NCBI GenBank assembly: GCA_963664705.1
Contig: OY761556.1
Location: 3,488,001 to 3,552,000, forward strand
From: Acidobacteriota bacterium
GTDB taxonomy: Bacteria > Acidobacteriota > UBA6911
DNA: 64,000 nucleotides
Reading direction: 5' to 3'
Under the pieces are notes generated by a model. It ran no database searches and had not been told where the DNA came from. It saw only the letters and a list, made by a program, of their open reading frames with translations. Positions 32,660 through 64,000 of this stretch are shown piece by piece. Position numbers and translations under genes: made by a program. How positions within the stretch are numbered: position 1 is the stretch's first letter; every line of letters begins with the position of its first letter.

Positions 32660-34066
32660 TTAGAAGTAGATATCTCTTTTACCGCCGTCGATGTCGACGA
32701 TCGCCTGCCCCATGCGTTCCTTCAGATCATTACTGTCAAGCCCGGCAAGGATCTCCCTGATCAGTTTGTCTCCATTCGATTTTGTCTCAGGCGAAGCAAA
32801 ATCATTCAGGTACTCCCTGAAGGTGAACACTGCATTCGGCATGCAGAACTGCTTGATAAGGCCCGGCTTGGCAAGATCCATAAAATCATTCCCGACGCGT
32901 CCCTTGCGATAGCAGCCGGTACAGAATGAGGGGATGTATCCTTTCTCCACAATGGAGTTGATAACTTCCTGAAGACTGCGGTGATCTCCAAGGGCAAACT
33001 GGCTCCCGGTGCCGGTATCATGGCTATAGGCACCGGGATTGGTACGGGATCCGGCCGATATCTGGCTCACGCCATAGTTGAACAGCTCGGTGCGCATCTC
33101 CTCGTTTTCGCGGGTGCTCAAAATAATTCCGGTATAGGGAAGAGCGATGCGAATGATGGCAATGATCTTCTTGAAATCAGCGTCGCTGACCGGCTGCGGC
33201 ACATGCGCGGCCAAGGGCGCATTTTCCGCCGGCTCGATGCGCGGGAAGCTTACCGTATGGGGCCCGCAGCCGTACAGAGTCTCGAGGTGAGCCGCGTGTT
33301 CCATGATTGCCAGGATTTCAAACCGGTAATCCGCAAGCCCGAAGAGCACGCCGATGCCGACGTCGCTGATGCCACCCTCCATGGCGCGATCCATGACGGT
33401 AACACGATATTCATAATCCGATTTGGGAGCGCCCTTTGGATGATATTTCTTATACATCACGGGGTCGTAGGTTTCCTGGAAACAAACGTACGTGCCGATC
33501 TTTTCCGCCTTCAGCCTGGCGAAATCCGCCACTTCCATTGGCGCAAGCTCAAGATTGATGCGCCGTACATAATTCTTCCCTTCGCGAACGGCGTAGGAAG
33601 TGCGGATGGCCTCGCACATGTAATCCGTATCGTTCTGTGCGCTCTCCCCGCATATCAGCAGGATCCGCTTATGGCCCTCAAGGAGGAGCGTACGAACTTC
33701 CTGCTCGATCTCCTTCATGTCGAGGATTTTTCGCTTCAGCGAGGTATTGCTCTTGCGAAAGGCACAATAAACGCAGTTGTTGTCGCAGACATTGCCGGTA
33801 TAAAGGGGGGCGAACAGAACCAGCCGCTTGCCGTAGATCTCTTCCTTGACGCGGTGCGCGCAGTCCATGATCTTCCGGATCTGCACGGGATCTTCGACAA
33901 CAAGAAGCGATGCGACATCATCGAGTGATAATCCCTTGAGCTGATCCGCCCTATTCAGGATTTCGTCTATATTCCCAGCAGCCGTTTTCTTCTGCTCGAG
34001 AAGTCCATAGAGTTTGTCGCGGTCAATGAAGCCCTTTTCTTTCTCATGCCTGCTCGCCGAAATCAT
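32660..34066 (-). CDS. hydG: [FeFe]-hydrogenase H-cluster radical SAM maturase HydG
   Basis: 'LFAPLYTGNVCDNNCVYC', 'FQETY', 'GPHTVSFPRIEPA', and C-terminal CX2CX22C 'PSFCTGC...KQFC' that distinguishes HydG from ThiH. Confidence 0.9.
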   Translation of the reverse strand: MISASRHEKEKGFIDRDKLYGLLEQKKTAAGNIDEILNRADQLKGLSLDDVASLLVVEDPVQIRKIMDCAHRVKEEIYGKRLVLFAPLYTGNVCDNNCVYCAFRKSNTSLKRKILDMKEIEQEVRTLLLEGHKRILLICGESAQNDTDYMCEAIRTSYAVREGKNYVRRINLELAPMEVADFARLKAEKIGTYVCFQETYDPVMYKKYHPKGAPKSDYEYRVTVMDRAMEGGISDVGIGVLFGLADYRFEILAIMEHAAHLETLYGCGPHTVSFPRIEPAENAPLAAHVPQPVSDADFKKIIAIIRIALPYTGIILSTRENEEMRTELFNYGVSQISAGSRTNPGAYSHDTGTGSQFALGDHRSLQEVINSIVEKGYIPSFCTGCYRKGRVGNDFMDLAKPGLIKQFCMPNAVFTFREYLNDFASPETKSNGDKLIREILAGLDSNDLKERMGQAIVDIDGGKRDIYF

Positions 34067-34322
34067 GGTCGTTCTCCTTATAATTCGTGAGAACGGATTT
34101 CACCTGGATTCCCTTAAGCCTTCCGATCTTGCCGGTAGCGGAGCCGATCTGGTCCGTAGTCCCCTCTACGATGAGGGAGATAACACTGACGCCATGATCG
34201 CGAAGAGGCATTCCCTGTCGGCCGAGCACGATATCACTGTAGGCTGAAATGATGGTATTGAGCTGCGGGATGCTCGACTTGTCATTGACGAGTATTGCAA
34301 TAACGCCGATTCTCTTCTCCAT
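34044..34322 (-). CDS. TM1266 family iron-only hydrogenase system putative regulator
   Basis: 'MEKRIGVIAILV...LN.IIS.Y.DIVLGRQGMP...VISLIVEG..DQI...TGKIGRL.GIQVKS'; overlaps the hydG start. Confidence 0.88.
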   Translation of the reverse strand: MEKRIGVIAILVNDKSSIPQLNTIISAYSDIVLGRQGMPLRDHGVSVISLIVEGTTDQIGSATGKIGRLKGIQVKSVLTNYKENDHDFGEQA

Positions 34323-34706: not shown

Positions 34707-36839
34707 TCATTGACCCCTGCCTGTTCGCGGCGACTCGAGCGCAGGCTTGAGCCCGCGTTCAATCAGCAGCGGCTCCACACTGGCATCACGGCCGCGAAAG
34801 GCCCGATACATCTCTGCGGAATCCATCTGTCCACCGCGGGAAAGGATCTTATCGCGGAATTGTTGCCCGTTCTTGCGATTCAATCCGCCCTTCTCCTTAA
34901 ACCAATAGTAGGCATCCTGGTCGATAACCTCGCTCCAGAGGTAGGCATAATAGCCGGCGGAATATCCGCCCGACCAGATGTGTGAGAAGTATGGCGTATG
35001 ATACCGCGGTGGGATTTCGTCCAGGTTGACCTTGTATTTTGCCAAGGCGGTTTTCTCGAATTCCGCCGCATTCTGAAGCGGCGAATCGGCTGCCAGCAGA
35101 TGCCACTCCATATCGATCAGTGCGGCCGCCGCATATTCGGTGGTCGCAAATCCCTGGTTGAAGGTTCCGGCCTTTTTCTTTTTTTCAATCAACGCCTTAG
35201 GCATCGCATCGCCGGTTTTGTAATGTTTGGCATAGTTTTCAAACACGGTCGGATCTTCGGCCCAATGTTCGTTGAACTGGGACGGAACCTCGACGAAGTC
35301 GCGCGGCATTCGGCCCGCGTAGGTTGCGGTTGAAAATATGCTGGCCAATGCGTGGCCGAACTCGTGAAACAGGGTTTCGACCTGATCCGAAGTCAGAAGC
35401 GCTGGTTGACCCGGAGCCGGTTTGGGAATATTGAGGTTGTTCGTGACGACGGGACTGGTCCTAAGAAGTTTGCTGGCGCTGACGAATCCGCTGCTCCACG
35501 CCCCGCCGGCTTTTCCGGAGCGCGCAAAATAATCGCCATAGAACAGAGCCAGCGGCGAGCCGTCTTTGTCAAAGACCTCCCACACCTTTACATCGGGATG
35601 GTAAACGGGAATATCACTCCTGACCCTGAATGTGATGCCATACATCTTTGTTGCCGCAAAGAAAACTCCGTCGCGGATGACGCGCTCGAGTTCAAAGTAG
35701 GGACGAAGCTGCTGTTCATCAATGTCATAATCGGCCTTGCGCACCAGCTCGGCATAGTACTGCCAGTCCCACGGAGCCAGCTTGAAGCCCGCCTTCTGTC
35801 CGTCAATGAGTTGCTGCATGCGGGCGGCTTCGCTTCTGGCCTTGGCGGTGGCGGCCGGAGCAATATCGGTCAACAGCCGGATGGCATTTTCCGGTGTTTT
35901 CGCCATCTGCTCCTCCAGGCCATAGGCGGCAAAATTTTTGTATCCCAGAAGCCGCGATCGCTGCGCCCGGAGCTGAGCGATGCGGGCCGCGATCGACGTC
36001 GTATCGTTTTCGCCGCCAAGACACCGCTCGCTGGAGGCTTTAAAGAGTTTCGCGCGCGTATCCCGATTCTTCAGATAGGCCATGGCCGGCTGCTGCGTTG
36101 TGTTCTGCAGCGCAAGCACCCACTTGCCGGCAAGATTCTTCTCTTTGGCCTTCTCCGCTGCACCGGCGATATCGCTTTCAGGCAGCCCTTCGAGCAGCGT
36201 CACATCGTCGACCACCAGCGCTTTGGCATTTGTCTCAGCAAGAACCTTCTTCCGGAATTCGTTGGACAGTTCCGAAACCTCTCGATTGATGGCGCGGAGG
36301 CTTGTCTTATCGGCTTCGGAAAGAAGTGCACCGGAACGAACGAATTCCTTGTAGTAGCGCTCCACTACGTATTTTTGCTCCGCTGTCAGCTTTGACCGGT
36401 TGCGGTCATCATAGATTGTCTTGATGCGCTGAAACAGCTTTGCGTTGAGGTTGATCGCGTCGTTATGCGCCGCCTGTTTCGGAGCCAGCTCAGTCTGCGC
36501 CTTTTGCAGCAAAGGGTTCGTATTGGATTGGGTAATGCCGCTGAAAACACGCGCAACACGGCGCAGCAACGCGCCGGATTTTTCCAATGCCGCAATCGTG
36601 TTTTCAAATGTTGGAGGCGCAGTATTCCCCGCAATCGCCTCCACCTCCGCCAGCTCCTGTTTCATTCCCTCTTCCATGGCCGGCTGATAATCGGGATCTT
36701 TGATTTTGTCGAATGGCGGCGCGTGGTATGGAAGCGAACTCTCTTTGAAAAATGGGTTATCGTTCCCGGGTGCCTGAGCCAGCGCCAGTGCGGGGATTGT
36801 AGAACAGGCAAGGATAAGGACTATTTTTATCAAGCTCAT
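34707..36839 (-). CDS. dcp: M3 family metallopeptidase (peptidyl-dipeptidase Dcp-like), exported
   Basis: Signal peptide; 'TLFHEFGHAL' HExxH, 'RDFVEVPSQFNEHW', 'GYSAGYYAYLWSE'. Confidence 0.88.
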   Translation of the reverse strand: MSLIKIVLILACSTIPALALAQAPGNDNPFFKESSLPYHAPPFDKIKDPDYQPAMEEGMKQELAEVEAIAGNTAPPTFENTIAALEKSGALLRRVARVFSGITQSNTNPLLQKAQTELAPKQAAHNDAINLNAKLFQRIKTIYDDRNRSKLTAEQKYVVERYYKEFVRSGALLSEADKTSLRAINREVSELSNEFRKKVLAETNAKALVVDDVTLLEGLPESDIAGAAEKAKEKNLAGKWVLALQNTTQQPAMAYLKNRDTRAKLFKASSERCLGGENDTTSIAARIAQLRAQRSRLLGYKNFAAYGLEEQMAKTPENAIRLLTDIAPAATAKARSEAARMQQLIDGQKAGFKLAPWDWQYYAELVRKADYDIDEQQLRPYFELERVIRDGVFFAATKMYGITFRVRSDIPVYHPDVKVWEVFDKDGSPLALFYGDYFARSGKAGGAWSSGFVSASKLLRTSPVVTNNLNIPKPAPGQPALLTSDQVETLFHEFGHALASIFSTATYAGRMPRDFVEVPSQFNEHWAEDPTVFENYAKHYKTGDAMPKALIEKKKKAGTFNQGFATTEYAAAALIDMEWHLLAADSPLQNAAEFEKTALAKYKVNLDEIPPRYHTPYFSHIWSGGYSAGYYAYLWSEVIDQDAYYWFKEKGGLNRKNGQQFRDKILSRGGQMDSAEMYRAFRGRDASVEPLLIERGLKPALESPRTGRGQ

Positions 36840-36872
36840 ATCTGATTCCTATCGGGTGACTTGATCTGCAGT

Positions 36873-36936
36873 TGTGCAATTCGTGAAATTCGTGGCGGAA
36901 GGAGTTCCAGGCGCCACTGATTTCACGAATTGCACA
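36873..36936. repeat. 17-bp inverted repeat (hairpin) between the UGSC-like gene and dcp
   Basis: TGTGCAATTCGTGAAAT (36873-36889) ... ATTTCACGAATTGCACA (36920-36936). Confidence 0.75.
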
Positions 36937-36943
36937 GGTTTCA

Positions 36944-38629
36944 CTATCTCCACTTATCGATCTGGACGGATTGGCTTGGCACCATGCCGCCCATGCTGAA
37001 GTAGTTGTTGTTCGATCCGCCCGTAACGACTACGGTGAAGGTTCCGCCGGCGTAGCGCTGTCCGCTGTTGGGTGGCGGCGGGTTGGGATTGGATCCGGCT
37101 TTGACATAATCCGTAAATTTTTCGACGGAGTCATACCCGGCATCCTTCACAAAATTGGCGATTGGAGGACTCAGAACCGCAAACGTTCCAAACAGCGAAC
37201 CATCCTGCGAGTTGTAAATATCTTTGATGATCTTGGGGTAGTTCATCTGTGTGCCCCAAACGTTGTCGGCCCAGTTCTTGGCAGAGAGGACGCCCCAACC
37301 GTTGAACAGAGTAATGATATTTTCATTCTTCTTGAAGCCGCGTCTGACGGAGAGCGGCTGAAATGGAGAATCCCGTTCATTTTCGGCAATGATGATGTTG
37401 ATCAGATTCATGGGATTTCCGACGGTCCCCATATAGGTCGTCCCTACCTTGCCGCAGTTCCCGCCGTTGATGGAAAGCAGGTTCCAGGCTCGTCCAATGG
37501 TTGTATTGGCATGGGCGTAGGGCCCCATGGCACCGATTTCATAGTTCAATCCGATCTCATCGCGAATTGAACCATTAATGACCGCACCGGATACAAAGCC
37601 GTTATCCGAAACGGAAATGCCTTCCATTCCGGTAGAGCCGATCGCGAGAATAATCGGGAAATATTCCGGCGCCGCCCCTGCCATCACCGCGTTGACGGCA
37701 GCATCTTTGACCGTATAGGTCCAAGTCTCGAAGACGCCAGCAGTCGGCCCCATCTTCCCAAGCACTTCGTCAGGGCGATGACTGGTCGCCTTCAGCATCT
37801 CATTGACCTTTTCCTCCGTCGGCATGACTACAGGCAGAAAGTCGGTATATCGCTTCTGAAGAAACACTTTCTGCAGTTCGTCAGCCGTGCCACTGAATGT
37901 GGCGGGTCCCTTGTCGCGAACCATCTGCCCGGATTTCTGATCTTCCGCGGATAGCGGTTTGGTGAGTTTGTCGACAATTTCCTGCATCACCGGCTTGCCG
38001 GTGAGCGGGTTGTTCCCCAGAACAACATCGCGGCGCAACTGTTCACGCGTCTTTCCCCAAATTGGGCCGCGGATATATTGGATGCGCATGCCCGGCATCC
38101 CCGCAGTTAAGGCAACTTCCTTTAATTGCTTATCAAAACTTGAAACCACGATGGGAACGGCGGGCTTTTTAATGGTGGATTCGAAGTCGATCGAAAGCCT
38201 GGTGACCCCAGGCGCACACACGCTTCAATGCCCGAGGGCGATGACCATGGCATCGGCCTTCTGTTTCATCTCGGCCCACAGCGCGGGATCCGGCTGAGCC
38301 ATGAATGTGGCTTTTTTCACATAATGGAAATTTGTTTTCGGATAAGCTTCTTTGAATCCTTTTTCAAATTCAAAGAGCAGATTATCCGATCCGGGATATC
38401 CGTCATCAACCAGATAGATAGTCTTGCCATCCATGGTATTCAGGCGAGGCGCCATCGGCTTCAATTCCAGCGGAGGTGGCGTGCCCAAGGGGTTGAGCAC
38501 CGTAATAACGGATTCTGCAGACTTCTTTGCCGCAGTCTTCACCTGAGCCTGGCCGCTCAAAATCGAGTAACTGCAAAACAGGCACAGGCACAGTACTGCA
38601 ATGAAAAACACAGTCGTATGCCGCTTCAT
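36944..38629 (-). CDS. Exported UGSC-like selenoprotein paralog A (~561 aa, Sec at UGA 38227-38225, motif H-U-S-V-C)
   Basis: ORFs 38629-38225 and 38221-36944 are in frame, joined by 'ALGH-TGA-AGC GTG TGT GCG CCT' = U-S-V-C-A-P. Hairpin GCCUGG-GGUCA-CCAGGC (38213-38197) starts 11 nt after the UGA. Signal peptide MKRHTTVFFIAVLCLCLFC. Confidence 0.85.
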
Positions 38630-38812
38630 TCCTCGATCCTCCTTGTTGTAGTTTGACGAACTCAAGTGATTCAAGCCGGAGTGCGAGTGGCTTTCATCGC
38701 TTGGCATACTGCTTTGAGGCAACCAAATGCTTGATAAATCACGGTTATCAAATGCGTTTCCATGCTGCAAATCCCATGCACAGCATAGAAAATTTGACAA
38801 AATGCCGATGCG

Positions 38813-43794: not shown

Positions 43795-44277
43795 TTAAGA
43801 CTGCCAGTAGGTGCGGTCGAGCGTGCGGTATTGGATAGCCTCGGAGACATGGCGGGCAAGAATCTTGTCCATGCCGTCCAGGTCGGCCATGGTCCTGGAG
43901 ACGCGCAGAATGCGGTCATACGCGCGCGCGGATAAACCAAGCTTTGTGATGGCATTCTCCATCTGTTTTTCCGACTCGGCATCCAGACTGCAAAAACGAC
44001 GAATCGTGCGCGCTGTCATCTGGGCGTTGCAGTAGATGCCAAAAGCCTCCAGTCGTTTGCACTGGGCATTCCGCGCGGCCAGGATGCGGCCACGAATTAC
44101 CGTGGACTCCTCACATTTATCATCCTGCGCCAATTCCTTGTATTTGACGGCCGGAACCTGGATATGTAAATCGATTCTGTCGAGCAAAGGCCCGGACACT
44201 CTTGCCAGGTATCGCTGAATCAGCGGCGGCGTGCAGGTGCAGTCGTGCTGCGTATCGCCAAAATACCCGCACTGGCA
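43795..44277 (-). pseudogene. comM: Orphan 3' fragment of comM (direct repeat copy 1, 483 bp)
   Basis: Matches 51414-51896 with 7 mismatches by my manual alignment. It starts at the CQCG codons and runs to the stop; no 5' half is attached. Confidence 0.95.
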
Positions 44278-45533: not shown

Positions 45534-48500
45534 TTAGTTTAGGTTCGTTCCATGACAATGCTCCCTTAGCTTGTCATCCCAATAGCCACTTGCATCAAGC
45601 GTATTCTCATCCAATGATTTCTGCGGATTACTAACCCATCCCAATACTGAGGCGATAGCAATATCTCCACTATTTAAGCCAATATGAATGCCCTCGTGTA
45701 AAACTGTTGCCCCCATTTCAACTGACAAGAAAACCGCGGGATCAAAAGCCGGTTTCCAGAGATCAATGGTCCACGTGTCCAGATTTGCAGTGGCCGTGGC
45801 ATTTTCTTGCCATTTATGATGGAATTGGTTAGGGTGTGAGACAATATTATAATCAAATTGCTGGAAGTCTGAAAAACGCTGATTTGCGTAGTACTCTCCC
45901 TGATATTTGTATATCGAATTGAAAAGTCCCATAACAAAGGACCCACAATCAGAGCTGATGTCACTAACCCATGATTTTGCGATCGATTCACCTGAATCAA
46001 CGAGTGTTTTCACAGGATCGGCCGGAATCGCTGGGATCTGTATTACTGGCTGAGGCGGTTGCATGCTATAAGCAAAGGCATACCAGTACAGTGCACTTCG
46101 TGCCATGAAATCGCTAAAATCAACTGGAGGGTTGTATTCGCTGGAACCAAGCCATCCAAGCGGGTTCCAAAACTTTCCATCCGCATCAACCCTATTTAGA
46201 GGATCATTTCTGACGTACGCGTACTTGTTCAGCGACTGCGGGTCGTAGATGTGCGCCGTCAAAGGATCCGGCGAGGTCCATCGCATTAGCGAGGTATTGT
46301 AGTACCTGGCACCGAAGTCCTTCAGACCTGTCTCCTCATCCACCTTGTGGCCGGGATATTGATCCGAGCCGCCGGAACCAAATGCCCTGGAATAAAAGCC
46401 GCTATCAACGATCTGGCTTCCGATTGTAACAACCTCCTCCTGCCGGTGATTCCTTCCCGGCCATTTGAGATTATCCACCACCGTGTAGCCAAAGCTGTTG
46501 TTCGTATAGCCCCTGGTGCGCCGCGCAACAAGCGCCGAGTTCATATAGATATTGTTCGTATATGTATTTTCATACGTCTGCCACGACGCGCTCTCCACCT
46601 TGTATTCGGCAAGGATTTCATTCCCGTTCCCATAAACATACGAATAGCTAACCGAGCGCTGTTCCCCATAATAATAATAGTTCCAGCTCTTTTTCACCCT
46701 GCGGCCCAGCGCATCGTACCGGTACGCTCCCAGCAACGCGCTATCCGACGTGCGATTCACTTGCCTGATCAGGCTGTTGGCATTGTAAAGGTACGAATTG
46801 GCTGCATCCTGAAGCTGGTTGCCCGACTGATCATAGTAAGATGCATACGCTGCAAGCCGGTTGTTCTGGTCATTGGCGGTCCCACTCACGTTCCCGTACC
46901 TGTCATAGCTCCAGTTGCTGCTCCACTCTGTTCCGTTCGCCGACTGCAGAGTTTCCGCCGACAACCGCCCCAATCGATCGTACCCATACGTCGACCATTT
47001 CGATTCCAGGCTATTGCCGTAAGCATCTTTTTTCGTGTAGTCGACCCGAGAGATCCGGTTGGATAGCGTGTACGAATAATTCAGGTCATATTCGTGGGGA
47101 GTCCCCCACATGCTATTCGGAACCGTTATCCGGATGATCGAAAGCCTCCCATAACTATCCGTAACATGTTCTTCCGAGCTGGTTCCGTAAGAAATCAGCG
47201 AAACCGATCCATCCACCAGCGCGTAGTCGACATCCGTGACATAGGTTCGGCTTGTCCCGGAAATGACAGTATCCACTATTCCCGTCGCTCGTCCGATTGG
47301 ATCGCGCGTGTATGTGATCTCATTGCCGTCAGGATAGGTCATACTTTGTAGATCCTTCTTCGAGCATCCGCAGCCAGCCGGCGTGTAGCTATAGTTTACA
47401 GGATAATTTGTGGAGTCCATACGCATGATCTGCTGCGTCACCCGGCCTCCCTGGTCGTAGCTCCAGCTATAACCGACACTCTCTCCCGTAATCTGAAGAC
47501 TGCTGTTGACCGTCCAGGCGCTCGTCATTCGCCCCTGCCCGTTTGTTATCAGACCTATCAGACTCGAACTCGATTCATCGTAACTCATCAGTGACCATGG
47601 AGTGCCGTCCGAATAGGACGTAACCAGCAACCGGTTCAGAGCATCATAGCTGTAGCCCGTGACGACACCCCGGGCATCCGTCTTCTGCGTCACGTTCCCG
47701 TTATCATCATAGACAAACGTTACCGTTCCGCTCTCGGGATTGGTTTCCGCTATCTTTCTGCCCAGGCTGTTGTATCCATAGGTCCTCACTTGAACCCCCT
47801 GCAGGATTTGTATCAGCCGGCCCGGAATATCATAGGAATATACGGTCTCAGGTCCCCAGTTCCCGTTGGAATCCTCCTCGATCACCTTTAGAATCTGCCC
47901 GGACTCATTGTGTTCCGTCCTTTTTCTTCGTCCCTCCTGATCGGTCGCTGTGGTTACGTTTCCCACATATTGATACGTTATCTGGCCGCCCGTTGCCGGG
48001 CTTATGCTGGTAATCCTGCCCAGCACATCATAGCTGTAGGTCGTAAACGCCGCCGTGCCCCCACGGCTGGGCAGCCACTTCTTCGTGGCCCGGCCATGAG
48101 CATCGTAGTCCGCTTTTTCATAAATGCTGTTTTCCGACGGGATCTCCTTCTGCGTTTTGATCGTGTTGCCCGAAGGATTGCTGTCAAAATAGGAATAACC
48201 CGATGAGTTGTTGGTGGTTACTTGGTAATCCTGATCATCATAAGAAAAATACGAATTTCCGGTCGGCGCCGATTGATTTACTTTTCTATTGAGCCCGTCA
48301 TAGGCATTGGTAACCTGGGCGCCGTTGGGGTCCGTCGTCGAATACAGATTCCCGGTCCACGCCGTACCAAGAAAACTCTCCCACTGGTACTGCGTCGTGT
48401 GATTCAGCGCATCGGTCGACGAGGCCGGATAGGGACCGACGGTATAGGAAATCGTGGACTGGCTGCCTTTGGGATCAACCTTCCTCACCACATTGCCAGC

Positions 48501-50291
48501 GATATCATATTGGGCATGAGACATAATCCATCGGGACTGCTCCTTGTACAGCGCTCCCGCACTGGTCGCGTTTCCCCGCGTCAAATATGCCGTCCAGTAT
48601 CCGGAATTGTGATTAACCGGATTATAGGCCATCGCCACTAAAGGATAAGCGCCATATTCGTCATAGGCGGTCTGTGTCCGGGTCAGCTCGACATTACCTG
48701 CGTTTCTTGTCGATACGGCCGACACCAGGTTGGTCAATCCCTGCGCAACATATTCCGGATGCGTCTCGTGCCAGTACTCCATTGCCGTTCTTCGAAGCAC
48801 CGAACCGCTGAACCCGGTTTCGACGGTTTCCTTCACATTGCCGGTCCCGTCGGCGGCGTAGGTCGTTGCCGTTTGCGTCGTTTTCCCATCGTCCAGCGTG
48901 GTTGTGGCAGACGTAATTCGCGGGTTCAGAACAAAAGTCTTCAGCGTATCGTCCTGACTCCAGGAATAACTCTGGGTTCTCAAAACAGTCTGCCCGTTAT
49001 AGGTTTTCCGCGTGACCGAGGTCGGCATGCCGTCAGACCAATTTGCTCCCGATGAGGTGTAGTTCAGGTTATAAATGGTTCGCCCGTCGATATCCGCCGC
49101 TACCTCAACAGAAGAGGGGTTGGATTTCGTCTGGTCAACGCTGTAGCTGATGGACCAGGTGGTGCTGGTTGTCGTCCCATTATTGTTAACGTACTCCGTC
49201 TTCTGAGACACCATTCTCTGGGGACGCCAGTTTGGAGTGCCGCCATCATAGATGCTGTTTGTTCCATAAGAATAGGCGACCCTGTCCCGGCTCGAGGTGG
49301 ATATCAGCGTCCATTGATAGGTATTATAATCATAGCCATACTCGCTGACGGAGTCGGTCACGACGGCCAGCTCGCCAAACTGATTGTACTGAAACACTTG
49401 TCCGAGACGTGTATTGCTCAAGCCTCCGCCATTAATTCCCGCCATCCATATCGAACTCAACACCTTTTCATTGGGGCCCGGGCTCTGAACCGTATAAGGA
49501 GACGGGAAGGACGGCGAAAGCGACGGTGTCGCGTATTGAAAATTAATCCATATGGGATAGCTCGCATGCATCACCCGGATGCTGCTGAGAAATCCATCCC
49601 CGCCATAGAAGAAAGTCATCTGCGGCACAGCCGTGTAAGGGTAGGTCGTTGTGTCGTATGAATTTCCCAGGCTGTCGTCAATCGAGGCCAGTTTCCCGGT
49701 GCCGGGCACATAGGTTGCAAATATCTGGTTTCCGTTTCGATCCCGAACTTCCGTTGCGTAGGAATTGGCCCCCACGGTATTTCCAAAAAACAGCTTTGTG
49801 CCTCCGACCATCGTCGCCACATTCGGATTGCCCGGCGTCAGCCGTATATAGGTGGAATCGACAGACCTCCAGTCGCCGCGTCCATAATCGGCTATCTCGT
49901 GCGAACTGCCGTCTGACATGACAAGTGTATAGCTGGATCTCCCTTGGACAAGGTATGGAAAGCCAAGCCGCCACCCCAATCCCACGGAACTTCCCAGTTC
50001 GGACAACCCCATCAGCGTGGTGCCGGTTCGCGTCCAGATCTTGCTGTTATAGGCCAATGACAGGGACAGATTCAAGCCGGCTCTGCCCGGTCGCGTCGGC
50101 AACGGCCTGCTGAAAACAATATTTCCGTTCACCAGGTTGATTTGTCCAAGTCCGCCCAGATAGGGAACAAATGAATACATCCCCTGCGCATTCATGCAGT
50201 CATAGGTTAATTCGGTTTCAATAAATGCGGTTCTTGTCGCGATGGGAAAAGTCAGGAATGCAATCAGAATGAGTAGGATTCGTTTTGTCAT
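45534..50291 (-). CDS. RHS/YD-repeat polymorphic toxin with signal peptide and C-terminal HExxH domain
   Basis: YD repeats (YDALNRL, YDALGRR), core 'DEETGLKDFGARYY...RWTSPDP...PQSLNKYAYVRNDPLNRVDADG', C-terminal 'TVLHEGIH'. Confidence 0.93.
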   Translation of the reverse strand: MTKRILLILIAFLTFPIATRTAFIETELTYDCMNAQGMYSFVPYLGGLGQINLVNGNIVFSRPLPTRPGRAGLNLSLSLAYNSKIWTRTGTTLMGLSELGSSVGLGWRLGFPYLVQGRSSYTLVMSDGSSHEIADYGRGDWRSVDSTYIRLTPGNPNVATMVGGTKLFFGNTVGANSYATEVRDRNGNQIFATYVPGTGKLASIDDSLGNSYDTTTYPYTAVPQMTFFYGGDGFLSSIRVMHASYPIWINFQYATPSLSPSFPSPYTVQSPGPNEKVLSSIWMAGINGGGLSNTRLGQVFQYNQFGELAVVTDSVSEYGYDYNTYQWTLISTSSRDRVAYSYGTNSIYDGGTPNWRPQRMVSQKTEYVNNNGTTTSTTWSISYSVDQTKSNPSSVEVAADIDGRTIYNLNYTSSGANWSDGMPTSVTRKTYNGQTVLRTQSYSWSQDDTLKTFVLNPRITSATTTLDDGKTTQTATTYAADGTGNVKETVETGFSGSVLRRTAMEYWHETHPEYVAQGLTNLVSAVSTRNAGNVELTRTQTAYDEYGAYPLVAMAYNPVNHNSGYWTAYLTRGNATSAGALYKEQSRWIMSHAQYDIAGNVVRKVDPKGSQSTISYTVGPYPASSTDALNHTTQYQWESFLGTAWTGNLYSTTDPNGAQVTNAYDGLNRKVNQSAPTGNSYFSYDDQDYQVTTNNSSGYSYFDSNPSGNTIKTQKEIPSENSIYEKADYDAHGRATKKWLPSRGGTAAFTTYSYDVLGRITSISPATGGQITYQYVGNVTTATDQEGRRKRTEHNESGQILKVIEEDSNGNWGPETVYSYDIPGRLIQILQGVQVRTYGYNSLGRKIAETNPESGTVTFVYDDNGNVTQKTDARGVVTGYSYDALNRLLVTSYSDGTPWSLMSYDESSSSLIGLITNGQGRMTSAWTVNSSLQITGESVGYSWSYDQGGRVTQQIMRMDSTNYPVNYSYTPAGCGCSKKDLQSMTYPDGNEITYTRDPIGRATGIVDTVISGTSRTYVTDVDYALVDGSVSLISYGTSSEEHVTDSYGRLSIIRITVPNSMWGTPHEYDLNYSYTLSNRISRVDYTKKDAYGNSLESKWSTYGYDRLGRLSAETLQSANGTEWSSNWSYDRYGNVSGTANDQNNRLAAYASYYDQSGNQLQDAANSYLYNANSLIRQVNRTSDSALLGAYRYDALGRRVKKSWNYYYYGEQRSVSYSYVYGNGNEILAEYKVESASWQTYENTYTNNIYMNSALVARRTRGYTNNSFGYTVVDNLKWPGRNHRQEEVVTIGSQIVDSGFYSRAFGSGGSDQYPGHKVDEETGLKDFGARYYNTSLMRWTSPDPLTAHIYDPQSLNKYAYVRNDPLNRVDADGKFWNPLGWLGSSEYNPPVDFSDFMARSALYWYAFAYSMQPPQPVIQIPAIPADPVKTLVDSGESIAKSWVSDISSDCGSFVMGLFNSIYKYQGEYYANQRFSDFQQFDYNIVSHPNQFHHKWQENATATANLDTWTIDLWKPAFDPAVFLSVEMGATVLHEGIHIGLNSGDIAIASVLGWVSNPQKSLDENTLDASGYWDDKLREHCHGTNLN

Positions 50292-52952: not shown

Positions 52953-53098
52953 GGGCCTGATACTCCTTTCGTATATCCAATGGCTTCCTGTCATTTTGAG
53001 CGAAAATATTTTGCTAATTTGCTCAACCCTGCCACTAGAAGAAGGATCCTTATGCGGGAACTGGTATAATCAGGCTTTATTCAATAAGGGGCGTTCTC

Positions 53099-54945: not shown

Positions 54946-56688
54946 ATGAAAAATAGGCAACTCTTAGCATGCATTGCTGTCGTGATCATGGCAGCAGTGG
55001 CATTTGCCGGCTTTGCACCCGTGCAGGCACAGCAAAAGGCCACCGCCAAGCCCAAGATTACGGTGCTGAATCCCGCTATCGAAAGCAAGATGGCGGATCG
55101 CATACCACTTTCTCCTCGCCTGGACACGCTCGAGGGGAAGACACTGTACCTGGTCGATATCAACTGGGGCGGCCCCGAGGCAGCCTACAGCGTGTTTGAG
55201 GAAATGCAGGCCTGGTTTGCTCAAAACATGCCCAGTGTGAAAATCATCATCAAACGAAAAGCCGGATCGTACACCACAGACGATAAGCCGCTGTGGGCGG
55301 AGATCAAAAAGAATGGAAATGCCGCTTTGATCGGCATATCGGGTTGAGATGGCTGCACGTCGGCCGTGAGCCAACATTGCAGAAGTCTCGAGTTGATGGG
55401 CATTCCGACCTCAGGCGCAGCTGCTGCCAATATCGTGAGGTATGCGGTCGGGTATGATTTTGAATATACAAACGGCATGCCGATTCGCTATGTCGGATTC
55501 CCGTTCCCGGTAGCCGGACAGCCGAAGGCTGTTCACCACAAGTATGTTTTTGAAAGCAAAGATGTATTGACCGGCAAGCCGATGATGCAGGCCATCATCG
55601 ACAATCTTACAAAGCCGCTGACTGATAAGGAAAAGATCGCGGGAAAGCCTCCTGAAGCCAAAGTTGAGCCACGGCTTCTGCCTCCCGGTAACGAGGATGA
55701 ACTGCAGCAAGTCTTCAAGGATAATGATTGGACCGACTATAATCCCATCATTCTTCCGACTGAAGAACGAGTCGCTGCAATGCTGAAGGGAACCAGCCGA
55801 AAACCCACCGATAAAGTAAAAGAACTGAATTGGCCGGGCGGAAAGCGGAACCTCACAGTCGAAAAGGTTGCGGTCTGCGCCGTGATGGCGGGTGCAAAAC
55901 CGGAACACTTCCCCCTAATCCTGGCCCTGGCAACCGCACTTCCGTTCGGAAATTCGACAAGCTCCATGGCAAACATGATTCTTGTCAACGGTCCGATACG
56001 GAACCAGGTAAAGATGAACTACGGGCTGAACACCATGGGACCGCACAATGAAGTGAACGCGGTTCTGGGAAGATCCTTCACGTTGATGTCGAAAACCGCC
56101 GGAAATCTGCACTCCGGAAAAACGACGTTCAGCGGTCTGGGAAGCAACCTGCAATACAACAATGTGTGCTTCGCGGAAAACGAAGAAGCGCTGCCCGCAG
56201 GATGGAATCCTGTCCACGTACAGATGGGCAACAAGCCGACCGACAGCACTGTGACAGTGGCGACCGGCTGGTCCTATATCTCGAGCGTGGGTGAAGTGCA
56301 AAGAGGATATCCTCCACAGTTCCTGATGCGTGATTACATGCGATCGCTGTCCGGCATGGGCGGCACGGTAATCATGGATCCGTCCGTGGCAGCCCTGATG
56401 AAGGATGCCCAGGGATTCAATAGCAAAGAAGACCTGTCCAAGTGGCTTGCTCAGAATATCGAGAAGACCGTATCGTCCTATTGGGGCAATGGCGTGATCT
56501 CGACGATGTTTGCAACCATGGCGATTCAGGGACTCGAACCCTATGCATCCCAGAAGAAGATGCCCCCCGACACACTGATCAAGCCCTTCCAAAGGGTTGG
56601 AGTGGTTGTAGCGGGTGGCGGGCAGACCACCTGGTTTGTGACCGATTTTGGTCTCGGCCGGGGTGAACTGGTCGATAACTGGAAGTAG
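54946..56688 (+). CDS. Exported UGSC-like selenoprotein paralog B (~580 aa, Sec at UGA 55345-55347, motif G-U-D-G-C)
   Basis: ORFs 54946-55347 and 55366-56688 are in frame, joined by 'IGISG-TGA-GAT GGC TGC ACG' = U-D-G-C-T. Imperfect hairpin at 55353-55382 with loop CGUGA; signal peptide. Confidence 0.85.
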
Positions 56689-56942: not shown

Positions 56943-58682
56943 ATGAAGTTGCGTACCGCAGTAATTGCAATTTTGTGCCTGGGTCTTTGTCTCAGTTTCT
57001 CTGCACTGAGCATTCAGACCTATGCGCAAGGAAAGAAGGCAGCTCCGGCTGGTAAACCGGTGGCCGTGGCCAAGATTACGGTACTCAGTCCGATGGGTAC
57101 ACCGCCCCCGATTACCCTCAAGAACCAGGCACCGCGCCTGGATACGCTTGACGGCAAAACCATTTATCTGGTGAACACGGGATTTGTCGGAACTGAACGC
57201 CTGATGGAAGTCATGACGGAGTGGTTCAAGGAAAATCATCCCAAAACCACCATCGTCAACAAAAGAAATCCTTCAATGGATCAGCCCAATAAACAGCTGT
57301 GGGCTGAGCTCAATGAGAAGGCTGACGGCGTCATCATCGGGCTGGGTCATTGAAGTGTTTGCGCGCCTGGGGCGGTTCGCCTCAGCATTGACATCGAATC
57401 CAACTTCAAGAAACCCTCAATCCCTCTCATCCTGTCTGATTTCGCCAAACAGGAAGCCGAAGTCGCTCTTACCAGCGGTATGCCTGGCCTCCGCATTCAA
57501 TATTTCCGTGGCCCGGTTTGGGGCAAAACCAACGAACAGCTCAAGAAACAGATTATTGAAGGCCTCAATCCGGTAACAGGAAAACCGGTGATGCCAGAAA
57601 TCATCGAAAAACTCACCAAACCTCTGACCGCCGAGGAAAAGAAGACCGGGGATATCAAGGTGGATAAAGGCCCGGCCACTTTCACCGGCACGCCGGATGA
57701 ACTCCAGAAGCTGTTCCTTGACAAACGAATGACCGATTTCATGCCCATCATTCTTCCGACCGAAGAGAAGGTTGAAGAAATGCTGAAGGGCACCAGCCAC
57801 CGTCCGGACGAGCTTCTTGGCAAAATGAACCCGGGCTCCGAAGCTGGTGACGTTTGGACCTATACGGTCAAAGATGCCGCCGTTAACGCCGTTATGGCCG
57901 GTGCCAAACCGGAATACTTCCCGGTTATCCTGGCACTCGGTTCGACTGGTTCGCCGAGCGTCAATGTGTCCGATAACGGCTTCATGGCCGGTGCCGTCGT
58001 AAACGGCCCCATCCGTGACGAAATCAAACTCAATTACGAAATCGGCGCCGTGGGTCCCTATGCCCAGGCGAATACGACGATCGGAAGAGCCTGGAACCTG
58101 CTGTCCATCAATGGCGGGAACTGCGGCAAAGTCGGGACGACCTACATGGGCACCGTAGGAAATGCCCACAACTATGTCAGCCCTATCATTGCCGAAAACG
58201 AACGCGATTCTCCATTCAAGCCGCTGGCCGTACGCCGCGGATTCAAGGAGAATGAGAATATCGTCACCCTGTTCATGGGCTGGGGTATTCTTTCCGCGAA
58301 AAACTGGAAAGCCGATGTTTGGGGATCCAACATGAATTATCCCCAGATCATCAAAGACATTTTCAACCAGCAGGATCCCATGTTCGGGACGATCGCCGTC
58401 CTGAGTCCGCCTATTGCCAATTTCGTGAAAGATGCCGGCTATGATACAGCCGAAAAATTCACGGAATGGGTAACGGCGCCTGTGAATCCCCCTGCAGCTC
58501 CGGCTGGCGCTCCTGCCGGCGGGCCTGCCGGTCGCGGCCCCGGTGGACCTGGCGGACGCGGCGGCATGGGCATGATGGGCGGCGCATTCAGCGTCGTCGT
58601 CACTGGCGGCACCAACAACAACTACTGGATGATGGGCGGCATGAGGCCTGGTCAGTCCATTCAGATTGATAAATGGCGGTAG
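56943..58682 (+). CDS. Exported UGSC-like selenoprotein paralog C (~579 aa, Sec at UGA 57351-57353, motif H-U-S-V-C)
   Basis: ORFs 56943-57353 and 57480-58682 are in frame with 42 sense codons between them, homologous to paralog A (SVCAPGAVRLSIDIES). Hairpin CUGGGGCG-GUU-CGCCUCAG at 57367-57385; signal peptide. Confidence 0.87.
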
Positions 58683-60177: not shown

Positions 60178-63100
60178 TTAGAACAGCAGCTTCAATCCCA
60201 TCCGCATTGTTCGACTGCCGCCGCTGATCTGCGTGAAGTTCAAAAATAGTCCGGCTCCGGTTCCGTTAACCGTCTTGGTGACAGATCCGGGACTATCGAA
60301 ATTCTCATGATTCAGCAGGTTGAAAATTTCCGCCCTGTATTCCAGTCTGACCTTTTCGGTAAACCGGAAAGTCTTCAGGGCATTCAGATTGACGCTGGAA
60401 TAACCGGAAGTATACACGCTGTTTCTCCCAGCCGTGTTTGCTCCGGGTACGCTGTATGAAGTAACGGCAATCCAACGCACCTGATCGGAGGTCGTGCAAC
60501 CATAGCCGTTCGATGCACTGGCTGTGACATTCAGATCCCGCAACCCCGAAGGGCAGGCGGAAGCCGATGCAGCCCCAACCGGAACGGTAACGGCGCGAGT
60601 GTCCACGGGAGCATTCGGATTTCCTACATCCGGACGCAGTGCGGTCGCATCCGCTCCCCCTTCATACATTCGGTCAAATCCATTGAGAACAGTGTAAGGA
60701 ACTCCCGAACGGAAGGTAAGGGTACTGGCGGTACTCCACCCACCCAGAATTTGTCCCAGGATTCCGCTCTTGGGTCCGCGAATATCCCACATCAAAGATG
60801 TCGACCACATATGACGTCGATCGTTATCCGATGGCCCGTAGTCGATGTTGCCGCTCAGCCCCATACGCTCAACCAGGATGGGAGAGATGGACGCATTCTG
60901 CGGGGAACCGTTCGTAGCAAAGGTCTCGGTCCCGGTATCCATATTCCGTGACCAGGTATAGTTACTGTCGAAAGACAGTCCACCCACCGGAGTATTGCTG
61001 AACCTGCGGCGAATACCCAGCTGCATGGAGTTGTAATTGCCATTCACGAACGAAGCACGGATCTGGCGAGCACCGATGGTTGAGACTATGCGGGAACCGA
61101 ATCCGTTCAGAGCCGCATTGGGCAAATAGGGATTCATCGCAACGGTCCTGAATTGCTTCCGTGTAACCGAACCCACATAGGCAATATCAAGTACCGTCTT
61201 CCCCAAAATCTCCCGTTGAATGCCCAGTGACCAGCGCTGCGTATACGGATTGCGAATATTCGCGTCAAACTGTGACGAAGCACTGGACAGATCGTCGACC
61301 GCAGTCGGAACCAGGGATGGCAGAACAGCCGAAAGGTTGCTTAGCCCTCTAGGTGTTGCCGCCGTCGACGAGGATGGAACGGGAACATTGGCCAAGGCGT
61401 TGGGTGAACCGGCCGCCATGTTTGAGAGAAGGTTGTTGTACCAGGTATCATAGGTAAGCTGATACCCGCCACGAACCACCAGCTTGCCTTTGCCAAAAAG
61501 CTTGGCAAGCAGTTTGTTTGCAAGCCAGCCACTCTTCGGATCCGGATTCCAGGCAAACCCGAAACTGGGCCCGAAATTGTTATTATCCGGATTTACCTTG
61601 GTCGAGGTTGTAATGGCGCCTGGCGTGTTGCCTGTATAGGCCGGATATTTGAAGCTATTGGCGGGCTGCCCGAAATTCTCGTAGCGAATTCCGTAATTCA
61701 ATGTGAGATGCTGCGTGACCTTCCATCCATCCTGGGCAAACAGAGTCCAACGGAACAGATTCGGATAGTAGATTCCGCTGCCAAATGTTATCGACACAGG
61801 ACCGCTGGATGTGCCGGCGTAATCGTCAATCCAGTTTGCCATGCTTGTCACACCGCCAGGCACCAGGGTGCTGCTGGAGGTGGAGAAGTAGGAAGCTGTG
61901 CCACGATAGTTGAAGGGCGCCTGCTGTCTTGCCAGCTGGCGCAGAATATCTCCACCGAAGCGGATGGAATGAGTCCCCCTGATTGTGGTGGCCGTATCCT
62001 GGTATTGATAGGAGTTTGAAACTCGCCCCTGCGGATACGTGCTGCTGACTCCAATGGAAGATAATCCGGTCAGGCTTATCTGCGGCAGCGTATTGCCTAC
62101 GGATTCGGGATTTGCCAGGGGATATCCCAAATTCACCCTCTGGAAGTTGAATCGGACTTCATTCGTTGTGTGATTCGAAATCATGTAGGTATGGTTCACG
62201 GCCACACCAAAGCTCTTTTCCGAATAGAGAGTACTGAAATCCGGCGTGAAGCCGATGGAATCCGGAGAATTCGTCGTTCGGTTGTAGAGCCATCGAACCA
62301 TGAAATACTGCTTATTGGAGATCTGGTGGTCAAACCGGATCTGATGATTGTTATTGAGATAGACGGTCGGCGCAAACAAGGTTGCAATAGCGGTTTCCAC
62401 GGTCTGCCCCGTGCGGGCTCCGCCGCTGCAGGAAGTCGAAGCCAGGCTGGCCGGCAAGGCAATGCTGTACGCGGACGCACTGTTGGCCGGATTGCCACGC
62501 AAACTACCCAGGAAGCCAAGATAGGACGCCACATTGGCACAGGTGGTCGCCAATGGTTTCAATACCTGGTACCCAGCCTCGGTGGGCACGCGGTAGCTTG
62601 CCTGGGTTCCGCCATCCGAATAACGGTCCCACTGACCAGCAACGAAAATGAAGGTCTTGTCTTTTCCATTGTAAATGTGGGGAATGACGACAGGAGAACC
62701 AAAGGTGAAAGCCGGGATATTCTCCTTGAATACCGGCTTGAGCGGATTGCCGCTGCCGGGAACATATGCAAGCCGCTGAGTGCGAGTGGATGCATTCAAA
62801 CGCTGCGATCGGTAAACCCAGGCCAAAGTACCGGCAGGGTTGTTGGTTCCCGACTTGATAATCTGATTGATGACGGCGCCGCCAGCGCGTCCGAATTCAG
62901 CGCTGAAATTGGAGGTTTGAATGGCCACTTCCTGCAACGCATCATTGTTGGTCAGGATCAGGCCCGGTCCGGCAACCGAAATATCGTTATTTTCCACGCC
63001 ATCGATCATGTAGTTGTTTGAACGGGCGCGGGCACCGTTTACCGATCCCACACCGCCGCCAACACCTGTCTGGTTAGTCGTAACGCCGGGGAGCAGCAGG

Positions 63101-63573
63101 ATCAGGTTCGTGGAATCCTGTCCACTGATCGGCAGCTGTGCCAGGGATCGCTCGGTGATATTTGTCCCGCGTTTCTCTTCATTCAGCTGGACCTCTGCAG
63201 CCTCGCCCTTTACCGTAACGGTTACATTCTCAGTCGCCACGGCCAAAACTGGATCAACGGCCGCCGTCTGGTTGGCGGAAACCTTGATCTGTTTAACCAC
63301 AAATGTGCTGAAGCCCGTCATCTTGACGGTCAAATCATAATTTCCTAAATCCACGGCGTCGAAACGAAAGATTCCAACCTCGTTGGTAACTTCCGACCGG
63401 GTGGAATTGGTTTCCGTCCGGGTCAGCTCTACCGTGGCTCCAGCGACAACGCCACCCTGCTGATCCGTGACCACGCCTAAGACGGTTCCACGGCTTGTTT
63501 GTGCGTAGCTATTGCCCAGTAAACTAAGCAACAGTACACACACAAACAAGAAGATAGCCCTTTTCCCAATCAT
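60178..63573 (-). CDS. Oar-like TonB-dependent outer-membrane receptor with N-terminal carboxypeptidase-regulatory-like domain
   Basis: Signal peptide; 'GVVTDQQGGVVAGATV', 'VNGARARSNNYMIDG', 'TSNFSAEFGRAGG', 'FAQDGWKVT..LTLNYGIRYE', C-terminal 'RAEIFNLLNH...RTMRMGLKLLF'. Confidence 0.93.
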   Translation of the reverse strand: MIGKRAIFLFVCVLLLSLLGNSYAQTSRGTVLGVVTDQQGGVVAGATVELTRTETNSTRSEVTNEVGIFRFDAVDLGNYDLTVKMTGFSTFVVKQIKVSANQTAAVDPVLAVATENVTVTVKGEAAEVQLNEEKRGTNITERSLAQLPISGQDSTNLILLLPGVTTNQTGVGGGVGSVNGARARSNNYMIDGVENNDISVAGPGLILTNNDALQEVAIQTSNFSAEFGRAGGAVINQIIKSGTNNPAGTLAWVYRSQRLNASTRTQRLAYVPGSGNPLKPVFKENIPAFTFGSPVVIPHIYNGKDKTFIFVAGQWDRYSDGGTQASYRVPTEAGYQVLKPLATTCANVASYLGFLGSLRGNPANSASAYSIALPASLASTSCSGGARTGQTVETAIATLFAPTVYLNNNHQIRFDHQISNKQYFMVRWLYNRTTNSPDSIGFTPDFSTLYSEKSFGVAVNHTYMISNHTTNEVRFNFQRVNLGYPLANPESVGNTLPQISLTGLSSIGVSSTYPQGRVSNSYQYQDTATTIRGTHSIRFGGDILRQLARQQAPFNYRGTASYFSTSSSTLVPGGVTSMANWIDDYAGTSSGPVSITFGSGIYYPNLFRWTLFAQDGWKVTQHLTLNYGIRYENFGQPANSFKYPAYTGNTPGAITTSTKVNPDNNNFGPSFGFAWNPDPKSGWLANKLLAKLFGKGKLVVRGGYQLTYDTWYNNLLSNMAAGSPNALANVPVPSSSTAATPRGLSNLSAVLPSLVPTAVDDLSSASSQFDANIRNPYTQRWSLGIQREILGKTVLDIAYVGSVTRKQFRTVAMNPYLPNAALNGFGSRIVSTIGARQIRASFVNGNYNSMQLGIRRRFSNTPVGGLSFDSNYTWSRNMDTGTETFATNGSPQNASISPILVERMGLSGNIDYGPSDNDRRHMWSTSLMWDIRGPKSGILGQILGGWSTASTLTFRSGVPYTVLNGFDRMYEGGADATALRPDVGNPNAPVDTRAVTVPVGAASASACPSGLRDLNVTASASNGYGCTTSDQVRWIAVTSYSVPGANTAGRNSVYTSGYSSVNLNALKTFRFTEKVRLEYRAEIFNLLNHENFDSPGSVTKTVNGTGAGLFLNFTQISGGSRTMRMGLKLLF

Positions 63574-64000
63574 GCCTCACTTCTCCTTGAAGTAATTGCT
63601 ACTGCATTCAACCACACATTCCCTTACCCGAGGCGCTTGACAACAGAATACGCTGCAAAAAAAATCTCGCTGAATCCCCAGGCGCGCAAAAGGGTTCAAT
63701 ATTTCTATAACTTAAACCAAAAATCAATGAATAATTGGCGAAGGATCTTGGCTATATCCAGCGAAAACAATTCACTAAAACAATGCATACAAATACTTTA
63801 TATGTATTTCCACAGATTATTTCGCATATAAAACCAAGTCATTGTATTGATACATTTACTAATGCATTTACACTATTTTGAATAAAAACGACCTGGAGTC
63901 TTGAGGCGGGACAGACAAAAAAAGTCGGCAGCAGGTTTTGCGACCTACTGCCGACTGAGGACAAAACGACCGGCACCTGACGACGGAGTTACCGCCAGTT

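Follow-up and report, generated by a model that had tools for sequence, protein, structure and literature searches.

A single TGA interrupts an otherwise open reading frame on the minus strand of an acidobacterial genome (36944..38629), within the 64,000-nucleotide stretch analysed here (the window). This raises two questions: whether the codon is read as selenocysteine (Sec), and what a protein that carries such a residue would do. A first, sequence-only reading proposed that the gene is one of three paralogous periplasmic Sec oxidoreductases. We followed up that proposal in the complete genome (6.89 Mb, one contig), whose closest named homologs are Acidobacteriota. The whole window is present, with zero letter differences, in contigs from two runs of one sample, which is possibly its source.

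The in-frame UGA almost certainly encodes selenocysteine

Read through the TGA, positions 38629-36944 (minus strand) form a single frame of 561 codons. The sole in-frame TGA is codon 135 (38225..38227, minus strand), in the context ALGH-U-SVCAPG, and translation together with paralog and homolog alignment marks it as Sec135 of a U-x-x-C motif completed by Cys138 (38218-38216, minus strand). A Shine-Dalgarno sequence, AAGGAGG, can be read at 38638..38644 (minus strand), 8 nt upstream of the ATG at 38629. ORF calling with table 11 yields two separate ORFs here, one of 134 and one of 425 residues; the sequence holds no Shine-Dalgarno-like stretch before the GTG at 38221, the start that gene callers give the downstream half.

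Comparative sequence evidence indicates that UGA135 is almost certainly decoded as Sec. The aligned codon is TGA in 31 of the 35 copies of the gene in this genome and a sense codon in the other four. Among 89 outside homologs (77 loci plus 9 and 3, from three separate homolog collections) it is TGA in 79, TGC or TGT in nine and CTA (Leu) in one. TAA and TAG occur at this position in neither set; their absence, noted for three copies in the sequence-only reading, holds for all 35 and for the 89 homologs. Relative to three orthologs that are 80-84% identical, with dS near or above 1, dN/dS is 0.04-0.10 for residues 40-134, 0.04-0.07 for residues 136-200 and 0.05-0.06 for residues 201-561: purifying selection acts on both sides of the UGA and is not relaxed after it. 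Sec/Cys interchange, purifying selection, a covarying hairpin and complete Sec machinery together back the original identification of the gene as a selenoprotein.

The TGA could instead be a true stop, leaving two adjacent genes or a pseudogene, or UGA could be read as Trp genome-wide. Public gene calls do divide the gene, most database matches start after the UGA, and genuine two-gene UGSC plus Unknown_1 arrangements are found elsewhere in the phylum; yet the codon is TGA or Cys, never TAA or TAG, in the 35 and 89 sequences, uninterrupted Cys homologs exist, and selection just past the UGA is equally strong. TGA terminates 1692 of 5249 called genes and is thus an ordinary stop here, which argues against genome-wide recoding, as does a tRNA-Trp with the normal CCA anticodon. 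As far as sequence allows, the true-stop reading is refuted, and we assign it almost no probability. Among the 150 homolog matches listed, of 575 in all, two contain an additional TAA, and a TAA is also present in a partial match that covers residues 143-561.

A SECIS-like hairpin lies at +12 to +28 after the UGA (38197..38213, minus strand), with a 6-bp stem and a 5-nt loop that begins with G (+18). Over 79 distinct TGA rows, 73% of cells are paired in the register +12..+27, more than in any of six slid registers, and four of the six pairs show changes on both sides. In the nine Cys homologs, no more than 33% of rows can form any of four of these six pairs; the difference in hairpin z-score between TGA and Cys homologs has a p value of 0.017 across sequences that are related to one another. 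Compared with synonymous recoding, the hairpin gives z of -2.1 to -3.6; on its own, the window hairpin stands out little from dinucleotide shuffles (z -1.44). The G-D-U-G-S-C subfamily (paralogs 5, 6, 12, 16 and 33; loci L028, L029, L035, L038 and L052) does not have the short hairpin. These five U-G-S-C paralogs have a longer one instead, from about +8 to +55 (z -2.3 to -3.9), so that two SECIS shapes coexist in one family of one genome.

A doubled decoding apparatus and a large selenoproteome

The genome holds two each of selA, selB, selD and tRNA-Sec, by curated profile cut-offs and, for the tRNA, by aragorn. One complete set is clustered (L055:6597-13092; G000:C1:3.072-3.079 Mb) and consists of selB, selA, a selD fused to a carboxymuconolactone-decarboxylase-like domain, tRNA-Sec and a UGA-containing methyltransferase. 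It adjoins a corrinoid protein, two URO-D-type methyltransferases and a corrinoid-activating RACo protein. Scattered elsewhere are the second selA, selB, selD (with its own UGA) and tRNA-Sec (L001, L003, L007, L010). Within the genus, two selA occur in 5 of 25 genomes and two selB in 3 of 25. We considered double machinery as a cause of the family's expansion and rejected it, since genomes with 30 or more family matches have one set. Aragorn also reports a 72-nt, canonical-size tRNA-like sequence with a TCA anticodon and a mismatched acceptor stem (G000:C1:1625651-1625722, minus strand); it is absent from the Rfam tRNA-Sec matches and is probably a pseudo-tRNA.

By eye, the genome has about 12-15 more likely selenoprotein genes, de novo screens being noisy. 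We take these to include two MvhD/FrhD-like proteins, FdhA, SelD, two rhodanese-like and two DUF1573-like proteins, a thioredoxin-like protein and a methyltransferase. The by-eye total is about 43-46 selenoprotein genes. In this respect the genome resembles other large bacterial selenoproteomes, being of anaerobe type and rich in selenoprotein genes, and its total is no record: at least 57 genes are given for the Olavius delta-1 symbiont, and 63 for a Methylomirabilota MAG, in the accessible text of PMC13188914. It is unlike them in that one family supplies 31 of the genes. The Olavius delta-1 table, in the portion of PMC1976440 available, has no known selenoprotein family with more than five copies, and the Olavius dataset has a single UGSC copy, compared with 31 Sec copies in one genome here.

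A long, probably exported form of the UGSC family

The sequence-only reading did not recognise the family. Residues 44-201 (38027..38500, minus strand) match the Pfam UGSC domain (PF24696) with 80.5 bits against a cut-off of 25, which all 35 copies exceed. The cut-off of the NCBIfam equivalog NF041046, a short stand-alone protein, is missed (57.4 against 125 bits); the gene is a long fused UGSC variant and not that equivalog. Both the family and the UGSC/Unknown_1 fusion were already published in 2007-2008 (PMC1976440, PMC2398784), and the product on its own is an ordinary member, sharing with the proteins described in the accessible parts of those papers the U-x-x-C motif and the interchange of Sec and Cys. 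It differs from published UGSC proteins in its U-S-V-C motif (literal U-G-S-C appears in 7 of the 35 paralogs), in its predicted N-terminal signal peptide and in the replacement of the Unknown_1 Cys by Ala.

The predicted Sec-pathway signal peptide spans about residues 1-28 (38546..38629, minus strand) and has a basic start, a hydrophobic core and a small-residue cleavage region. This tripartite pattern was recognised by eye and by a hydrophobicity heuristic (score 3.34); by that heuristic, the periplasmic location claimed earlier is likely. Twin-arginine-type leaders occur in homologs mostly labelled Acidiferrales (L067-L075, L084, L085, L089, L093, L099) and in the genome's own paralog 22 (L041). 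The family therefore spans Sec-exported, Tat-exported and cytoplasmic forms.

The C-terminal domain, about residues 240-561 (36947..37912, minus strand), corresponds to 'Unknown_1' of Zhang & Gladyshev (2008). We identified its motif, AVNAVMAG-x-x-PEY-x-P, by eye at residues 311-329 against the alignment text of the 2008 supplement, and the domain order is that of the fusion in Figure S1A, as far as the accessible material extends (PMC2398784). The conserved Cys of Unknown_1 is Ala319 here; the position is Ala in 93 and Cys in 18 of 111 aligned rows. Near-invariant residues are D263, P270-T271, N375, G379-R380 and E416. The domain has no Pfam, NCBIfam or PDB sequence match, PDB sequence searches with the protein and with a profile returned nothing below E 0.9, and profile searches matched the protein to no solute-binding family.

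AlphaFold, run on 111 sequences, models both domains as one chain (pLDDT 93.8, pTM 0.92); a single-sequence model was unusable (pLDDT 36). The Sec-bearing domain is predicted to adopt a flavodoxin/CheY-like alpha/beta fold and not the thioredoxin-like fold presumed in the available text of the 2008 paper (PMC2398784). Thioredoxin-fold chains are absent from the top 50 structural matches of a VIA search with model residues 29-192. Foldseek against the PDB and viral models gave weak alpha/beta matches alone, with TM-scores of at most 0.21 over the query, and the ESM Atlas, queried with two database relatives, returned just unnamed or UGSC clusters. A mutual-information contact analysis was dominated by indels.

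The family is broad, with 3392 clusters at 50% identity scoring E<=0.001. Gene callers split its long form at the UGA, and databases therefore hide that form. Among database representatives whose frame runs uninterrupted across the site, just 18 of 51 keep C-x-x-C; part of the family therefore works without the redox motif.

A genus-wide, polyphyletic expansion

The earlier count of three paralogs was too low. Searches by tblastn and, independently, by six-frame Pfam scan found 35 full-length copies in the genome, 31 of them with TGA. Besides the gene under study, the window contains paralog B (54946..56688, plus strand; U-D-G-C in the context ISG-U-DGC, TGA at 55345-55347, about 30% identical) and paralog C (56943..58682, plus strand; U-S-V-C in the context GLGH-U-SVCAPG, TGA at 57351-57353, about 65% identical), each with exactly one TGA, at the aligned codon. 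It also holds the 3' end of paralog D (U-S-Q-C; 63989..64000, minus strand), which continues past the window (G000:C1:3551989-3553668). The nearer paralog is 16,317 nt away, in agreement with the 16 kb first given, and translating both genes bears out the architecture said to be shared with paralog C. The peptides quoted as common to the copies are identical in our gene and paralog C and are absent from paralog B. Their codons differ between the two genes at 12 of 32, 7 of 14 and 3 of 6 positions (22 of 52 in total), and the statement that synonymous sites differ was correct.

Median pairwise identity among the 35 copies is 32%, and it is above 90% in three pairs alone. Four full-length paralogs have Met, Leu, Asn or Ser in place of Sec (L025, two divergent genes in L036, L045); three of these four also have no resolving Cys138.

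All 27 genomes searched in the genus contain family matches at E<=1e-20, from 8 to at least 31 per genome with fragments included, compared with 0-2 in 20 other genomes of the family and 0-2 in 16 other genomes of the class. In a FastTree tree of 76 rows, in which the 41 outside rows were hand-chosen from 89 and are biased towards the subfamily of the window gene, the genome's own copies are spread over at least 16 positions, interspersed with homologs from Thermodesulfobacteriota, Chloroflexota, Bacillota and other groups, and several clades consist of own copies only. This distribution implies old or transferred subfamilies together with local duplication. We reject a single duplication burst, given that this tree requires no fewer than 16 label changes to place the genome's own copies. 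The lineage-specific expansion inferred from three copies is thus real in being genus-wide, and is far larger than proposed, but it is polyphyletic; we claim no donor. Full-text searches of the open literature listed no paper on an expansion of the UGSC family.

The selenium site resembles that of GrdB and PrdB

We compared the Sec domain with a PrdB-like profile drawn from 30 loci, read through the UGA, of the 48 PF07355 matches in 151 phylum genomes. HHalign aligned the domain with 29 PrdB-like proteins at a probability of 92.5% (score 50.9, 97 columns), with U and C in register; controls (20 column shuffles and reversed, receiver-domain and FMN-reductase profiles) scored at most 21. With Cys and Sec masked, the match to GrdB/PrdB scored 36.8. 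Identity to GrdB is 19%. Both families share a strand, U-x-x-C, a helix ending in (L/I)E-x-x-G-(I/V)-P-T-V, then a strand and P-x-P. They also share thioredoxin-system genes near the non-exported homologs. We found no solved GrdB or PrdB structure with which to confirm the homology, and full-text searches of the open literature listed no paper on homology between UGSC and GrdB.

The differences are as clear. None of 57 UGSC-fusion members matches PF07355 (GrdB/PrdB) at E<=1; the model ends just before the Sec. PF07355 has no match in the genome, in a search in which no control genome gave a match, although the model did match 39 of 151 phylum genomes. GrdA and GrdE/PrdA were found in none of four genus genomes including this one, with a positive control (G029) that scored, and the C-terminal domain shows homology neither to GrdE (probability 0.9%) nor to GrdB. 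The classical reductase partners, among them the pyruvoyl proprotein GrdE/PrdA, are therefore missing, and the Sec domain is fused to an unrelated domain of 320 residues. If exported as predicted, the UGSC fusion could not directly feed cytoplasmic acetyl-phosphate formation. From these sequence comparisons we predict that the protein functions like a GrdB/PrdB without being one.

Sets of substrate-specific paralogs are known for GrdB itself: in the accessible part of PMC10838667, the genome of Cloacibacillus porcorum is described as carrying eight Sec-grdB genes that differ in substrate, and a C-F bond is proposed as a target of attack by Sec. By analogy, Sec-GrdB offers a precedent both for substrate-specific Sec paralogs and for bond attack by Sec.

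Neighbouring genes and electron supply

The downstream neighbour is a dcp-like M3 peptidase (34707..36839, minus strand). As the sequence-only reading stated, it is co-oriented with our gene, which lies upstream of it, and with a signal-like stretch at its N terminus (gene 36839-34707) it appears to be exported. The association it implied is not conserved, and we rejected it: dcp is absent from regions of 9-14.5 kb around four orthologs (83-87% identity) and the four next-closest genus copies, and it is therefore probably outside the system. The upstream metallo-hydrolase, HEAT protein, hydG and kinase are absent from the same eight regions. Between the gene and dcp lies an imperfect palindrome (36872..36936), a dispersed repeat with 16 BLAST pieces in the genome including itself, possibly a transcription stop or a REP-like element; a terminator scan does not call it, promoter and terminator scans here performing at chance level. 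Downstream of dcp, on the same strand, are hydG and a TM1266-type hydrogenase regulator (window 32660-34322).

The genes that flank the 35 copies are for the most part unrelated, and we found no substrate-linked operon among them. At 77 outside loci, a co-oriented thioredoxin-reductase-like gene lies within 2 kb of 22 of 49 signal-less homologs and of 0 of 28 exported ones. These counts, like those for TonB receptors below, come from related and hence non-independent genomes, with heuristic signal classes and some flanks cut by contig ends. Exported copies would need an electron path across the membrane; DsbD, present in five of five genus genomes tested, is a candidate.

We tested 67 gene families for enrichment near the paralogs of this genome against shifted paralog positions, and two families were enriched. 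TonB-dependent receptors lie near 8 of the 35 paralogs, against an expectation of 1.9 (p 0.02 after family-wise correction for the 67 families); one such outer-membrane receptor (60178..63573, minus strand) sits between paralogs B/C and D. The second is an exported family of 170-190 residues, a candidate accessory subunit, with eight of its nine members within 143 nt of a copy and one matching DUF4352. Neither family adjoins the window gene. The 170-190-residue copies are at L050:5841-6380, L040:5856-6395, L043:5961-6518, L033:5961-6461, L053:5925-6365, L051:5648-6130, L034:3424-3861 and L024:3403-3918, and in other phyla, too, members of this family lie next to homologs (L078, L087, L088, L070, L071). 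Linkage to aldehyde:ferredoxin oxidoreductases, Mo-hydroxylases, SnoaL-like proteins and esterases was rejected: nominal post hoc p values were 0.001-0.17, and correction for all 67 families left none significant (best 0.11). Three of these groups are themselves large in this genome, with about 21 aldehyde:ferredoxin oxidoreductases, about 20 Mo-hydroxylases and about 26 SnoaL-like proteins.

A proposed mechanism and its alternatives

Our preferred model is that the product is a periplasmic, two-domain, GrdB-like reductase with a Sec nucleophile and paralog-specific substrates. As a whole chain of steps we hold it tentatively, at a little under an even chance. Its first step is well supported and very nearly certain: SelB, tRNA-Sec and the hairpin at +12..+28 would insert Sec to give the 561-residue precursor. 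Removal of the signal peptide on export through the Sec pathway is likely. The Sec135 selenolate would then attack a carbon or heteroatom of a substrate held by the C-terminal domain and displace a leaving group, and Cys138 would resolve the adduct to form a Se-S bond. This bond may be re-reduced by thioredoxin reductase in signal-less homologs, or through DsbD in exported ones. The 31 Sec copies, with a median identity of 32% and subfamily-specific loops, would serve different small molecules imported by TonB-dependent receptors. The link to glycine and proline reductases underlies this proposal: given a related selenium site, the 31 proteins, likely exported, are predicted to be bond-breaking reductases for different imported substrates. 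Against the proposal stand the lack of any substrate-linked operon near the 35 copies, the missing classical partners and the many members that lack the redox motif (Sec is missing from 4 of the 35 copies, and just 18 of 51 uninterrupted representatives keep CxxC).

The earlier label of oxidoreductase is consistent with the UxxC motif, the GrdB/PrdB homology and the thioredoxin-reductase neighbours of signal-less homologs, and one could envision a more general role. In the accessible text of the 2008 paper, UGSC proteins were assumed to be thiol oxidoreductases (PMC2398784). A general envelope thiol/selenol oxidoreductase, acting on disulfides, sulfoxides or peroxides of proteins and oxidants, with a C-terminal domain that selects protein clients, would account for the U-x-x-C motif, for thioredoxin reductase beside signal-less homologs and the presence of DsbD, and for the exported 170-190-residue family directly beside paralogs (8 of 9 copies). 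It fits poorly with the predicted flavodoxin-like fold, the lack of thioredoxin-fold chains in the top 50 structural matches and the closest profile match being GrdB/PrdB, and a housekeeping redox role would not readily explain why there are 31 diverged copies, each with a second domain of 320 residues. We consider it unlikely, at about a quarter of the total weight.

Less probable again, though not negligible, is that the proteins bind periplasmic ligands or metal(loid)s, or act as lyases or transferases through the second domain, with Sec and Cys serving as ligands or a redox switch and not as a nucleophile. Such a role would explain why many full-length members have neither Sec nor Cys (4 of 35 here are without Sec; 18 of 51 keep CxxC), why TonB receptors are enriched nearby and why invariant residues cluster in the C-terminal domain. 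However, 31 of the 35 copies retain Sec, a costly residue, the linkage to thioredoxin reductase implies catalytic redox cycling, and solute-binding families are not matched.

Etherases act by nucleophilic displacement alpha to a carbonyl, followed by thiol resolution. That chemistry suits a Sec-x-x-Cys site, and a special case of the GrdB-like reductase would be a glutathione-independent etherase that cleaves lignin-type beta-aryl ethers after LigD/L/O-like oxidation. One homolog locus (L130) has three short-chain dehydrogenases; the top four PDB matches of the one searched include the C-alpha-dehydrogenase entries 4YAE, 4YA6 and 4Y98 (E 5e-96 to 2e-59), and such dehydrogenases are present in 23 of 30 genus genomes. 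Their genomic placement speaks against the idea: both of those in this genome stand among unrelated genes, with 221 and 420 kb separating them from the closest paralog, a close dehydrogenase occurs at just 2 of 77 outside loci (L130, L127), and short-chain dehydrogenases are not enriched near paralogs. We regard this special case as a long shot.

Taken together, the GrdB-like reductase model and the expansion suggest a broader picture, in which an orphan selenoprotein may have become the periplasmic toolkit of an uncultured Acidobacteriota genus: as many as about 30 single-chain relatives of glycine and proline reductases, each with its own substrate, that would reductively cleave C-N, C-O or C-S bonds of TonB-imported molecules. 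Aryl ethers derived from lignin are possible targets, and the enzymes would need neither glutathione nor pyruvoyl subunits nor GrdA and would use a C-terminal domain whose fold has no identified relative. In full, this picture is speculative and rather doubtful. If it is true, no single-family selenoprotein expansion that we have found reported is larger, and one of the most abundant orphan families of selenoproteins would gain a function. UGSC proteins were in 2008 among the most abundant selenoproteins of ocean and non-marine metagenomes, and they are an orphan family still. With 8 to at least 31 copies per genus genome, mostly exported, the family can be expected to carry a major physiological load in this genus. 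The genus-wide expansion, the homology to the GrdB/PrdB site, the predicted flavodoxin-like fold and the split in thioredoxin-reductase linkage between signal-less and exported homologs are new here. The expansion to about 30 selenoprotein copies, the site homology and the reductase neighbours together render the function of the family testable, with the genus paralogs as a natural panel for substrate screening; the GrdB/PrdB and thioredoxin-reductase links supplant the 'thioredoxin-like' label with specific, testable chemistry.

Two further loci deserve mention. In another genome (G022; L207:5393-11007), a C-alpha-dehydrogenase-like gene lies 7 kb from a UGSC-fusion gene and follows genes for a radical SAM protein (DUF3641), a CMD-like protein, a DUF2064-glycosyltransferase and a pyridine-nucleotide disulfide reductase. 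Within the window, the 3' end of a Mg-chelatase-like gene, presumably of the comM/yifB type, is duplicated 7 kb downstream (43795-44199 and 51414-52994). The intervening stretch, which encodes an HTH protein, an RHS-repeat protein (45534-50291) and small ORFs and has a GC dip to 0.48, is likely an element integrated into that gene.
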